In this document: one piece after another, positions 911-31,688 of the stretch
Layout: each line of letters opens with the position of its first letter
Position numbering within the stretch: the stretch's first letter is position 1
Assembly (NCBI GenBank): GCA_038257035.1
Contig: JBBSJT010000007.1
Span: 1-38,159, forward strand
DNA: 38,159 nt
Origin: Chlamydiia bacterium
GTDB taxonomy: Bacteria; Chlamydiota; Chlamydiia; Chlamydiales; Parachlamydiaceae
Direction: 5' to 3'
Notes under the pieces: model-generated
Database searches by the model: none
Told to the model about the DNA's origin: nothing
What the model saw: the letters and a program-made list of their open reading frames with translations, nothing else
Program-made: the position numbers and the translations under genes

Positions 911-1604
911 TACCGTTGTGGATGCTTTTTTTACCGCGAAGACCGCGAAGAAAGACGCGAAGAAGCGCGCTAACGCGCGACAAGAAGTAAGAAGAAGCAA
1001 GAAGAAGCGCAGCTTATGCACGGTGAAGAAGAATGTAAAAAAAATTCTGTTAAAAGAAAGTTCTTTAGATTAGTATGTAAGCCAAATTATGGAGTTTATA
1101 TGGAATTATTAGTAGCTGATAAATTGGATCAGGATACAGAGACGCTAATTAAAGTTATCATTGGGGCTGCTATAGATGTGCATCGCGAGCTTGGACCTGG
1201 TTATTTTGAAAAAGTCTACGAGCAAGCTATGGCATTAGAGCTAAGATCACGAGGTTTATCATTTGCAATGCAAGTTCCTGTGGCCGTTTGCTATAAAGGT
1301 GAAAAAATTCATGGTCAGATTTTGGATATGGTTGTCGAAGGAAAGGTTATTTTGGAATTAAAATCTGTGGAGATGCTTTTACAAGTTCATGAGGCTCAAA
1401 TAATTTCTTATCTTAAATCAACAGAAATACCAGTGGGATTATTAATAAATTTCAAGGAAAAGTGGGTTAAAGATGGTATCAAGCGGTTTATCCATAGCAA
1501 GAGTTAATTATCTCTCTTCATCGCGGCATAAGCCGCGCTTCTTCTTAGCTTCTTCGCGTCTTTCTTCGCGTTCTTCGCGGTAAAAAAAGGTAAAAGAATG
1601 TGTA
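911..1604. mobile_element. Inverted-repeat element copy 1 (CGCGAAG family), enclosing a GxxExxY gene; candidate autonomous copy
   Basis: Left arm 926-~1030 (tttttttaccgcgaagaccgcgaagaaagacgcgaagaagc...aagaagaagcgcagcttatgcacggtgaag) matches the reverse complement of right arm ~1515-1588 (apart from a ~30-nt insert in the left arm); single CDS between them; TA at 911 and 1603. Confidence 0.75.
1100..1507 (+). CDS. GxxExxY protein (PD-(D/E)xK nuclease superfamily), 135 aa
   Basis: AIDVHRELGPGYFEKVYEQAM signature and LDMVVEGKVILELKSV (D...ExK) motif; GGAG at 1091-1094 before ATG 1100, so the track start at 1016 (inside the repeat arm) is probably too long. Confidence 0.92.
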   Translation: MELLVADKLDQDTETLIKVIIGAAIDVHRELGPGYFEKVYEQAMALELRSRGLSFAMQVPVAVCYKGEKIHGQILDMVVEGKVILELKSVEMLLQVHEAQIISYLKSTEIPVGLLINFKEKWVKDGIKRFIHSKS

Positions 1605-1654
1605 TAATAAAAAAAGACTCTTTGTTTACTTGACGGTGAATGAGGCTTGAGGGC

Positions 1655-1692
1655 AAAAAAAAAGCCCGGTAGTCAAAGACCACCGGGCTTTT
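1655..1692 (-). terminator. Rho-independent terminator of the 22-aa ORF
   Basis: Minus strand AAAAGCCCGGTGGTC-TTT-GACTACCGGGC followed by T9, 7 nt after the TAG at 1700-1702. Confidence 0.8.
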
Positions 1693-1699
1693 CAAAGGA

Positions 1700-1768
1700 C
1701 TACTTTTTAGCTGCAGTAGTTTTCTTTGCTGAATCTTTTGTTGATTTTTTTGCTGCTTTTTTAACCAT
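1700..1768 (-). CDS. Lys/Ala-rich basic microprotein MVKKAAKKSTKDSAKKTTAAKK (22 aa), histone-like composition
   Basis: Hand-translated; AGGAG RBS 7 nt before ATG; own terminator directly downstream; below the ORF-track length cut-off. Confidence 0.65.
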   Translation of the reverse strand: MVKKAAKKSTKDSAKKTTAAKK

Positions 1769-1838
1769 TTGGAAACTCCTGTTTTTTTGTTTGGGCAATT
1801 TTTTTTGCCTCTAATTTGACAATATGAATTTAAAATAT

Positions 1839-2051
1839 TTAATTAAACTTATTTTTATCATTTTTTTTAATAGAGCATGAATTTTTACCAAAAAGCTGAT
1901 AAAAAAGGCACCAACTTGCAAGCGATTCATACAGCACAAAAAGGGCCAAAAAACCAATAATCCAACTATTCTGCCAAATCGCTACTGCAAATAAAAAATT
2001 AGCGATGATAAAACGAATAATTCGATCTTTGGCTCCGATATTTTTTTGCAT
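1839..2051 (-). CDS. Small membrane protein, DUF2892/YgaP-like
   Basis: MQKNIGAKDRIIRFII...two hydrophobic segments...WCLFYQLFGKNSC; start moved to the second Met. Confidence 0.75.
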   Translation of the reverse strand: MQKNIGAKDRIIRFIIANFLFAVAIWQNSWIIGFLALFVLYESLASWCLFYQLFGKNSCSIKKNDKNKFN

Positions 2052-2146
2052 AAATAACCACGTTTCCATATAAAGGGTTTAAATCGATGTTTTTAATTTA
2101 ATTATCCATAAGTGAATTATAGCACAAAAAAGGAAAAGGTCAAAAG

Positions 2147-29432: not shown

Positions 29433-29448
29433 TGTCCCTTCTAAAAAC

Positions 29449-30879
29449 TTAAAGGGGTTTAATCACGCGGGCAACAAGGTCATAACCTGCAACGCCTGTG
29501 ATTTCTGCTAAATACCTTTCTCCAAAACCCTTGACCTTTCTTCCATCATTAATAATGATGTTACCATCAATGTCAGGGCATTGGCCACGGTGTCTAGCTA
29601 CCATCAATAAATTTGATTCAGGATGGTACCCTTCAACAATCACAACTAATTTTTGGCCGATTTTTGTCTTTAAGCATTTTTCAACAACTTTTTGTTGAAT
29701 TTGCATGAGGCGATCGTAACGTTCAATTTTCACTTCTTCAGCGATCTGATTTGGCAATGAAAAAGAGCGGCTATCGGGCTCACGAGAATATTTGAATATG
29801 CCAACATTATCAAGCGGGTAATCTGCTAAAAACTGGCAAAGCTCTTCAAATTGCTCTTCTGTTTCACCGGGGTATCCGACTATTAAGCTTGTTCTGATGC
29901 TAATATCAGGAATTTCTTTTTTAAGTTTTCCAATAATATCGATGATATCTTCTTTTGATGTCGCACGATTCATCGACTTTAAAACTTCATTGTTGACGTG
30001 TTGAATTGGCATATCAAGATATGGGCAGATTCTGCTGTCACTTTTCATTAATTCAATTAATTCGTCCGTGATTTCATCAGGGTAAAGGTAAAGAAGTCTT
30101 AACCAGTAATCACCAGGTTCTTTTAAAATTTCTTTGATCAAATTAATGAGGCCATCTACGCGCTTATACCCAATGTCCTTACCAAAATCGCCAAGATCTT
30201 GTGCGATTAAAATAATTTCCTTTACGCCACCCGAAGTTAACACTCTAAATTCATTTAAGACCTGGGTCACGGTTTTGCTTTTTAAGGGGCCTTTAATGTC
30301 AGGAATGATGCAGTACGCGCAACGTTTTCTGCAACCTTCAGCAATTTTTAAATAAGCAAAATGTTTGGGAGTCGACAATCGACGAGGAACTTCGCCCGCT
30401 TCTAAATAACTTTTAGCAGTTGTAATTTGCGAGCCTTGTGTTTCTGATTGAACGGCTTTCAAAATGCCTTCAACATCACCTGAGCCTAATAAATAATCAA
30501 CTTTTGGAAATTGGCTTGTGATGTCGTTACTATGTGTTTGAACCATGCAACCTGTGACAATAAGTTTAGCAGAGGCTTTGCGTGCCTTTAAGGTTTCATC
30601 AATTGTTGCCATTGATTCATCTCTTGAGACCTGTAGAAATCCACAAGTGTTAATAACGATAAAATCAGCATCTTCCATTTGCTCTGTAGCCTCATAGCCG
30701 GCCTTTAAGAGAATGCCAAGCATCACTTCGCTATCGACTAAGTTACGCGGGCAACCAAGACTGATAAAATGAATTTTATTGCCTTTAAAAGCATAGCGAT
30801 GCATATCATCTTGTTCAATAGTTTGGCATGTGTTTTTTTCAACAGGCAAATTAGAAGTTTCATTAAAAATTTTAAGCAT
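29449..30879 (-). CDS. rimO: Ribosomal protein S12 methylthiotransferase RimO
   Basis: SLGCPRNLVDSE, INTCGF, radical-SAM CRKRCAYC, LYLYPD, C-terminal TRAM domain (PDIDG). Confidence 0.93.
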   Translation of the reverse strand: MLKIFNETSNLPVEKNTCQTIEQDDMHRYAFKGNKIHFISLGCPRNLVDSEVMLGILLKAGYEATEQMEDADFIVINTCGFLQVSRDESMATIDETLKARKASAKLIVTGCMVQTHSNDITSQFPKVDYLLGSGDVEGILKAVQSETQGSQITTAKSYLEAGEVPRRLSTPKHFAYLKIAEGCRKRCAYCIIPDIKGPLKSKTVTQVLNEFRVLTSGGVKEIILIAQDLGDFGKDIGYKRVDGLINLIKEILKEPGDYWLRLLYLYPDEITDELIELMKSDSRICPYLDMPIQHVNNEVLKSMNRATSKEDIIDIIGKLKKEIPDISIRTSLIVGYPGETEEQFEELCQFLADYPLDNVGIFKYSREPDSRSFSLPNQIAEEVKIERYDRLMQIQQKVVEKCLKTKIGQKLVVIVEGYHPESNLLMVARHRGQCPDIDGNIIINDGRKVKGFGERYLAEITGVAGYDLVARVIKPL

Positions 30880-30920
30880 AAATAATTGATTTTCCGTTAC
30901 AAGTTAGTTTAATTAAAAAG

Positions 30921-30949
30921 ATTTTAGCAGGAATTTACAGGGATGTCAA
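30921..30949 (-). promoter_or_regulatory. Sigma70/sigma66-type promoter for rimO
   Basis: Minus strand TTGACA-17 nt-TAAAAT with TGn extension, about 40 nt before the ATG. Confidence 0.65.
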
Positions 30950-30954
30950 GCAGG

Positions 30955-31449
30955 TTAGTTATCAAATCGCAATCGAATTCTTGCAAGAAGAGCACCAAAG
31001 ACAAGTAAGGGGTGCTTAAAAAAATATTTGACAAGGTTAAAATAGGTGACTTCGCTAATGGGTCTTCTTACACAATGATCATATTTTAGCGCATCTTGCA
31101 ACCAATACTGATGCACGATGAAGAATGAAGAAGGTAGATTTGTGATTGGAAAAAAGGCTATATTTTTAGTTTCGTCACCATTTTGGAATGTTCCATCTAT
31201 CACTTGGCATTCATAAACATGGGTTTTAGAACTGAGTCGATTGATTGGTGTATATTCGCCAGTTTTTCTAATGATCTTGACATTGAGACCAGTCTCTTCA
31301 AGGGTTTCACGAATGGCAGCTTCCTCTTCTGTTTCAAAAGATTCAATGCCTCCTCCCGGTAAAACATAGACAGGGACATCCCTTCTTTTAATGAGGAGTA
31401 CTTCATCTCGGTTTTCTTTGAATATAATACTAATCGCTGCGCTTTTCAT
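30955..31449 (-). CDS. NUDIX hydrolase
   Basis: Nudix box PGGGIESFETEEEAAIRETLEETGL. Confidence 0.9.
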   Translation of the reverse strand: MKSAAISIIFKENRDEVLLIKRRDVPVYVLPGGGIESFETEEEAAIRETLEETGLNVKIIRKTGEYTPINRLSSKTHVYECQVIDGTFQNGDETKNIAFFPITNLPSSFFIVHQYWLQDALKYDHCVRRPISEVTYFNLVKYFFKHPLLVFGALLARIRLRFDN

Positions 31450-31493
31450 TTTTTTTCCATTTCATTACATTTTCTTTACCACGAAGAAATTTA

Positions 31494-31688
31494 TACCGTC
31501 ATTTTACATTTTTTTACCGCGAAGGGCGCGAAGAAGCGCAGCTTATGCTGCGGGAAGAAACGCGAAGAAGCGCGCCAAAGGCGCGATAGAACAAGACCTC
31601 GCGCGATAGCGCGCTCTTCGCGCCTCTTCTCGCAGCATAAGCTGCGCTTCTTCGCGCCCTTCGCGGTAAAAAAAATCATAACAAGCTA
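31494..31688. repeat. Inverted-repeat element copy 8 (empty, shortest), between divergent genes
   Basis: Core 31509-31675. Confidence 0.9.

Follow-up and report, generated by a model that had tools for sequence, protein, structure and literature searches.

Does the TA dinucleotide that stands at a set distance outside the conserved core of a bacterial hairpin repeat mark the place where the inserted DNA ends? The question is raised by a 38,159-nt stretch of DNA (the window), which is contig C7 (JBBSJT010000007.1) of the genome of a Chlamydiia bacterium of the family Parachlamydiaceae (assembly GCA_038257035.1, here G000; a 2.37-Mb draft, 36% G+C). The window holds eight inverted-repeat elements, one of which carries a gene for a GxxExxY protein, and at nine of their 16 ends a TA lies exactly 22 nt outside the core. 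A first-pass annotation of the window had proposed that this TA is the true element boundary, set by distance from a binding site in the core. Our analysis points elsewhere. The TA is probably the first dinucleotide of an outer repeat word in a modular hairpin, an internal landmark and not a terminus, and 22 nt would be the length of one module. A cut measured out to −22 is unneeded to explain the spacing, and it is a poor fit to most loci.

The elements are built on the core ACCGCGAAG, which, with at most one mismatch allowed, has 39 matches in the window against 3.3 expected; these matches form the eight elements. We printed 45 nt outside each of the 16 ends and measured from the T of TA to the A of ACCGCG. 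TA[AC]C[GA] stands at exactly 22 nt in nine ends (core A at 933, 6229, 7758, 20373, 28177 and 31516 on the left, and at 7972, 13236 and 17613 on the right), cTAG at 20–21 nt in four (core A at 17358, 20635, 28380 and 31667) and TA at 23–24 nt in two (core A at 1581 and 13051). The 16th end (6402) has CCACCA in place of the TA motif. These printouts reproduce the counts and coordinates of the first-pass annotation, and its remark that end classes are mixed within single copies also holds, as seen in the elements at 17337, 20351, 28155 and 31494.

The enrichment extends genome-wide, which was the check that the annotation had set for itself. Among the 183 ends of G000 that carry TTTACCGCGAAG, 48 have TA[AC]C[GA] at 22 nt and 17 have it at 23 nt, where genome frequency predicts 0.61 per offset and offsets 61–125 have a mean of 0.92 and a maximum of 3. 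For plain TA the counts are 63 ends at 22 nt, 41 at 23 nt and 55 at 24 nt, over a background of 13.5 with a maximum of 24. Because the enrichment is strong over both the genome expectation and the distant offsets, the TA observation is real.

The spacing is looser, and the linker better conserved, than had been claimed. When the 116 ends with a TA-type outer word are aligned on the TA, the distance from TA to core is 22 nt in 61, 23 nt in 35 and some other value in 20; 22 nt is the commonest distance, but this spread means that it is not strictly fixed. The linker, previously described as not conserved, has a weak consensus, yTArGrGGGAy followed by a pyrimidine run; G stands at −9 in 74% and at −10 in 59% of ends, while T is found at −16 in 68% and at −17 in 61%. 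Once the downstream bases are aligned, the TA of the cTAG ends falls opposite the CC of TACCG, and we read it as a different feature. The cTAG ends are also rare: 8 of 183 ends genome-wide, four of them in the window.

The surroundings of the TA show what it belongs to. In the 116 aligned ends, the three bases outside it are conserved (T in 67, T in 92 and A in 79, or 58%, 79% and 68%), conservation runs 2–4 nt past the TA, and information reaches background 4–5 nt out. Thus, the word is wTTA-TACCG-yT, and its opening repeats the opening of the core (T-ACCG). The ACCG starts 21 nt out in 54 of 183 ends and 22 nt out in 16, and a second ACCG tier stands 41–49 nt out in 24 ends. Tandem 21- to 24-nt modules, each with a T-run, ACCG... 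and a G-rich tail, are readable on contigs C36, C1 and C57 and at window positions 6402–6454. The pyrimidine run ahead of the core measures 7 nt in 101 of 183 ends and 8 nt in 53. Since the 22-nt distance occurs both with a T-run of 5 (23 ends) and with a T-run of 7 (33 ends), the T-run changes by C/T substitution within a fixed tract. A second hairpin family of the same genome (68 ends, defined by a T-run plus CAACGCAAAG) has an ACCG outer word 21–22 nt outside its different core (AACGCAAAG) at 11 of those 68 ends.

Two other roles for these bases were tried and rejected. As a free-standing target, ACCG[CT]TA[AG] occurs 219 times, but the 177 occurrences without a following core are mostly chance matches in genes. 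As a promoter, with TATACC as the −10 and TTCACC or TTTACC as the −35 element, the spacing is about 11 nt by eye, not about 17.

Repeat DNA continues beyond the TA at many ends. Array words are present at −75 to −25 in 75 of 183 ends (about 40%) and at −130 to −80 in 4 of 183, and random windows predict 2.0; 6-mers such as ACCACG, CACCAC and CGAAGA are 13–52 times enriched at −70 to −24. In the window, 7 of 16 ends have an array word outside the TA, for example ACCACGAAG at 8004–8012 and 31478–31486. Six unlinked copies with long ends have a common sequence as far as an outer T-run at about −45/−50, where they begin to diverge; at −22 two of the six have CA instead of TA, and none of the six has a TA at its outermost T-run. 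When each end is compared outward with its best-matching other end (n = 182), similarity extends for 21–28 nt in 89, at least 35 nt in 41 and less than 21 nt in 42. In just 14 of the 182, resemblance to all other ends is gone within 13 nt of the core.

We propose the following architecture. Read inward, each arm would consist of wTTA-TACCG-yT(A)rGrGGGAy, seven pyrimidines (mostly T) and the core ACCGCGAAG. It would contain an inner array of 9-nt GCGAAG words and, outside that, one, sometimes two or three, degenerate modules of 21–24 nt; about 40% of ends would add a further T-run and arrays of ACCAC[GA]AAG or CACAGAGAA beyond the outer modules. The outer word would reuse the opening of the core word (T-ACCG) one module (21–23 nt) further out, and C/T substitutions within a pyrimidine tract of constant length (7 nt) would give T-runs of 5 to 7. 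The constant 22 nt would then be one module's length, kept by descent, and for that reason the TA would be an internal landmark. In copies with a single outer module, it would stand no more than a few bases from where the inserted DNA ends, and in other copies 25–80 nt further in.

The eight copies of the window all sit between open reading frames (ORFs). Together with the gene that one of them contains and a copy of the second family, they are listed here; the repeats themselves are unstranded.

879–1604, element 1: the only gene-carrying copy, with TAs at 911 and 1604; its outer array is an outer T-run plus ACCACTGAG at 879–892 and CACAGAGAA at 895–903, and its core arms (925–966 and 1548–1589) form a 42-nt inverted repeat, 98% complementary.
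1100–1507, plus strand: the GxxExxY gene inside element 1, encoding 135 amino acids (aa) with a PD-(D/E)XK fold.
6200–6454, element 2: a 27-nt inverted repeat (6200–6226 and 6428–6454, 96%) that extends 6–7 nt past the TAs at 6207 and 6447; the right end has two tandem outer modules.
7735–8012, element 3: its outer modules pair (7735–7781 with 7949–7995), and its outer word ACCACGAAG (8004–8012, minus strand) abuts the stop codon of a beta-lactamase-family gene.
13010–13258, element 4: an inverted repeat of 98%, with CCACCAAGA at 13010–13018 outside the TA at 13027; the right TA (13257–13258) is 4 nt from the priA stop codon.
17337–17661, element 5: a cTAG-type left end and a CTACCA-type right end, with ACCCCGAAG further out (17653–17661, minus strand).
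20351–20674, element 6: an ATAACG left end and a cTAG right end, with an 81-nt inverted repeat of 93%; its outer words are ACCACAAAG at about 20666–20674 (minus strand) and a distant ACCCCGAAG at 20304–20312.
23706–23842: a copy of the second family, with a T-run plus CAACGCAAAG, as an inverted repeat.
28155–28400, element 7: occupies the whole space between a convergent gene pair; its TAs are 6 and 8 nt away from the stop codons of the two genes.
31478–31688, element 8: ACCACGAAG at 31478–31486 lies outside the TA at 31494.

Rfam has no family match in the window. At the 3′ end of priA (window 13263–13280), the encoded protein ends in ...DINPTSTFF* in G000 and in ...DINPV* in G002, a sister species. 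The last five PriA codons and the stop are in DNA adjoining element 4, so that the gene may have lost its native end to the insertion.

Comparison with relatives shows where the family occurs and measures the inserted DNA. G000 has 184 family ends and each of 40 relatives has at most 3; this is a burst specific to this genome. G001 and G002, sister species in the same genus with DNA identity of about 70%, have one chance match each, and the family is otherwise missing from them. Flanks from 80 complete elements were matched to some 2.07 Mb of G002 sequence, which gave 40 collinear sites, 17 of them tight (G002 anchors at most 150 nt apart); insertion lengths, not exact junctions, are usable from this comparison. 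At the 17 tight sites, the G000 excess minus the core-to-core span is 29–181 nt, with a median of 91, whereas an insertion running from TA to TA predicts 43–47. In 15 of the 17 this remainder is above 60 nt, and one site comes within 10 nt of the TA-to-TA prediction. Eight tight sites were read base by base, and in six (C73, C57, C27, C38, C37 and C81) the extra DNA consists of T-run and array modules. At C57, a stop codon and the following ATG are 4 nt apart in G002, and G000 has 302 nt there, bounded by inverted ACCAC[AG]AAG words; operon junctions with 4–9 nt separating the genes in G002 hold 300–370 nt of these modules in G000.

Empty sites were also sought closer to home. A BLAST search of G000 with element flanks found no paralogous empty site, only contig-end overlaps and two duplicates of 92–96%, and a search of metagenomes with MutS found no close strain, the best relative being 56% identical. 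Contigs C159 and C129, and likewise C161 and C86, share stretches of 92–96% identity that end at or beside an element and may be strain variants in the assembly or recent duplicates; the similarity of C161 and C86 sets in right at a stop codon, with a TTAACCG word 4 nt inward of it.

How firmly do these data separate an internal landmark from a boundary? The alternative closest to the first-pass annotation makes the TA the real end of the element, or else a TA target that was duplicated: an enzyme would bind the core and cut some two helical turns from it, and the outside arrays would be neighbouring or older insertions. Several observations speak for this alternative and weigh against ours. 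Window sites 2 and 4 exceed G002 by 244 and 233 nt, within 1–2 nt of their TA-to-TA lengths (242 and 232), and stop codons stand 4–8 nt outside the TA at several copies (6207, 13258, 28155 and 28400). As 89 of 182 ends stop matching their best other end at 21–28 nt out, the TA region is effectively the edge for about half of the ends. The outer word, for its part, firmly matches the core only in T-ACCG, its commonest continuation being TT, not CG. Junction placement is no better than about ±10 nt, and for C42, as for window sites 2 and 4, the long gap against G002 has a flat placement over about 10–30 nt. The strong enrichment at −22 and the equal spacing in a second family with a different core are likewise what a measuring enzyme would give, and the available text of one report on IS608 TnpA offers a precedent for cutting away from a bound hairpin (PMC3201880).

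By the annotation's own checks the proposed boundary survives, but it does not hold in general. Conservation carries on past the TA, the distance varies among the 116 aligned ends, array words lie outside in 75 of 183 ends, the six unlinked copies stay alike far beyond −22 (two of them with CA at that place, and all without a TA at the outermost T-run), and 15 of 17 tight sites are too long. Among 80 elements, no direct repeat of at least 3 nt was found at any fixed offset (offsets 15–69, k = 2–8, against a shuffled-partner control). The TA, though enriched at −22 and −24, is a palindrome, and a 2-nt TA duplication is indistinguishable from an extension of the inverted repeat. Altogether, we consider a terminus at the TA unlikely.

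We give the same low standing to a history of layered growth, in which the active unit would run from T-run to A-run and the TA module would be a remnant of an older generation or a palindromic target split by insertion. The inner 60 nt are indeed the better conserved part, with median identities of 0.82 (non-partner ends) to 0.88 (partner ends) against 0.56–0.61 at positions −25 to −8, and in 39 of 80 elements the two ends cease to be alike within 8 nt of the core. When element 8 is folded as single-stranded DNA, the predicted stem runs from T-run to A-run only (about 31509–31674; −96 kcal/mol, z −16.3), and at four of seven GxxExxY gene loci inspected in other genomes the flanks cease to be alike at the T/A run. 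A strict search of the genome for unoccupied pairs of outer words, however, gave 4 loose, unconvincing matches, against 66 ends in which outer word, T-run and core occur together. Moreover, few ends (the 14 of 182 above) lack outer similarity, and each hairpin family has its own outer-word variant (...AAGGGGGAC in one and ...AAGAATGAC in the other). Junctions at the T-run, which the first-pass annotation had named as the outcome that would tell against its boundary, are not what we see either: in the comparison with G002 at window site 2, deleting T-run to A-run scores 56 and deletions that include the outer modules score 89–105. Because unoccupied pairs are lacking, outer similarity is nearly general and the variants are family-specific, we keep the outer module as a likely part of the element, under weaker constraint.

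A last alternative, that a Y1 (IS200/RAYT-like) transposase moves the hairpins by cutting at a set distance from the hairpin foot, as with REPINs (hairpin-forming doublets of repetitive extragenic palindromic, or REP, sequences, moved by REP-associated tyrosine transposases, or RAYTs), and that the GxxExxY gene is a passenger, is very improbable: there is a Y1_Tnp gene in the window (10515–10963, minus strand) with 3–4 more loci in the genome, and REPINs with RAYTs are a known model for gene-less hairpin repeats in the available text of PMC3116915, but the window gene is broken and flanked by unrelated GGTCCGAAGGACC hairpins (5 genome copies), the gene nested between ACCGCGAAG arms is GxxExxY, a second GxxExxY gene pairs with the second family, and the GxxExxY gene-and-array layout recurs in other genomes. 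An in-frame TAG splits the IS200-like gene itself (PF01797, E 1.5e-14 and 9.6e-6), which lies, in a segment spanning 10329–11103, within 61-nt inverted repeats that contain the GGTCCGAAGGACC hairpins.

If the TA is internal, what moves the element? The only gene found between the arms gives a candidate. G000 has 81 complete elements, with core-to-core spans of 78–649 nt, mostly 137–307; one contains the GxxExxY gene and 80 are gene-less. The protein matches PF13366 (PDDEXK_3; E 1e-40, 139.2 bits, cut-off 22) and TIGR04256 (E 1.3e-40, 138.4 bits, cut-off 35). In an alignment of 11 sequences, G34, E37, Y40, D76, E86 and K88 are invariant; they cover the GxxExxY motif and a putative catalytic pattern D...ExK. 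An alignment-based model reaches a predicted local distance difference test (pLDDT) score of 91, where a single-sequence fold reaches only 46. Its top structural matches are all PD-(D/E)XK nucleases of restriction-endonuclease-like fold, such as BpuSI, Cas4, BglII and Hjc, with Z only up to 7.8; these matches of a predicted structure show fold, not function. Foldseek gave no match to the model at E ≤ 0.001, and a sequence search of the PDB with the protein gave none. In the available text of a PD-(D/E)XK survey, the function of PDDEXK_3/GxxExxY is listed as "Unknown" (PMC3424549), and the available text of another report places a GxxExxY gene beside a reverse transcriptase (PMC8934634).

The association between gene and hairpin is not confined to element 1. 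The only other GxxExxY gene of G000 (contig C17, 46% identical) is inside the second hairpin family, whose gene-carrying copy spans C17:14800–15340. In other genomes, 7 of 7 inspected gene-carrying loci lie between inverted arrays of short words, and of 41 related genomes 26 contain PF13366 genes, frequently with many fragments. One genome of the same order (G029) has 67 PF13366 matches, mostly C-terminal-half fragments of 50–60 aa and many with stop codons, which looks like a large decayed gene population. G002 has a 92% match to an arm of the second family. Words of a third array type stand in the window at 10240–10270 and 884–903 (ACCGAGATCACAGAG; ACCACTGAG..CACAGAGAA), and they match words flanking GxxExxY genes in other genomes (L102, L109 and L106).

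We infer from this pairing that the 80 gene-less copies would have been spread in trans by the GxxExxY PD-(D/E)XK nuclease of the one full copy. The nuclease would recognise phased T-ACCG/GCGAAG words on hairpin or duplex arms, and new copies would arise by break-and-copy beside gene ends. A bolder version, which we offer tentatively and regard as doubtful in its entirety, is that the GxxExxY protein binds in a register set by T-ACCG words phased two helical turns apart, with 9-nt GCGAAG words after them, and that this nuclease drives a class of mobile hairpins undescribed in print that inserts exactly at gene ends and grows by module addition. If so, the TA-bearing word would be the outermost site that the enzyme needs, which would explain equal spacing in two families with different cores.

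The locus offers a natural experiment in either case. A recent burst has produced about 90 copies from one gene-carrying copy; a second gene is paired with a second family; sister genomes lack the family; and insertions fill operon junctions while leaving the genes unbroken. Modular ends with an internal TA would tell which DNA a substrate should contain (outer word, T-run and first words of the core) and where cuts should be sought.

Two further features of this genome were recorded. Window positions 31882–35022 hold an ORF of 1046 aa without a match in Pfam or NCBIfam; its neighbours here, a NUDIX and a phosphoribosyltransferase gene, appear side by side in G002:C36. A repeated stretch of about 45 nt (...ACCGCTAAGTTAAAACCTACGCTACA), preceded by a short hairpin and often near contig ends, occurs on C2, C39, C49, C57, C68, C84, C103 and C119 of G000.

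In the literature that we searched, we found no paper describing the pairing of a GxxExxY gene with such repeats, and among the papers listed for Protochlamydia repeats none was relevant. The elements resemble several known systems. MITEs (miniature inverted-repeat transposable elements) with TA target duplication include those derived from IS630/Tc1-mariner and the Correia-type elements. Like them, the present copies have terminal inverted repeats, measure 150–310 bp, are intergenic and non-autonomous, and have TA near many ends. They differ in that the TA is not outermost in copies with outer arrays and in the absence of direct repeats of at least 3 nt. Among the 81 complete elements, none is a parent with a DDE transposase and the same ends; the only ORF-bearing copy encodes a PF13366 protein. 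IS608 TnpA, of the IS200/IS605 family, binds a subterminal hairpin and cleaves at some distance, as the available text of PMC3201880 describes. It belongs to another enzyme class, and the ends of IS608-type elements are asymmetric and rely on guide pairing of single strands.

Closest among known systems is REPIN/RAYT of Pseudomonas and E. coli, with which the layout is shared and the enzyme is not. As set out in the part of PMC3116915 available to us, that system also has many gene-less hairpin copies in extragenic space with one or few gene-carrying copies, a gene copy proper to each repeat family, and lineage-specific numbers. Here, too, gene-less hairpin doublets occupy extragenic space (80 of 81 elements gene-less, and 8 of 8 window copies intergenic). 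No RAYT gene is flanked by these repeats, however: the gene between the arms belongs to PF13366, and the Y1_Tnp gene has other repeats. The nested gene thus encodes a PD-(D/E)XK protein, whereas RAYT is a Y1 HUH transposase, and the arms are phased arrays of 8- to 9-nt words with T/A runs and outer modules, whereas REP sequences are short stem-loops.

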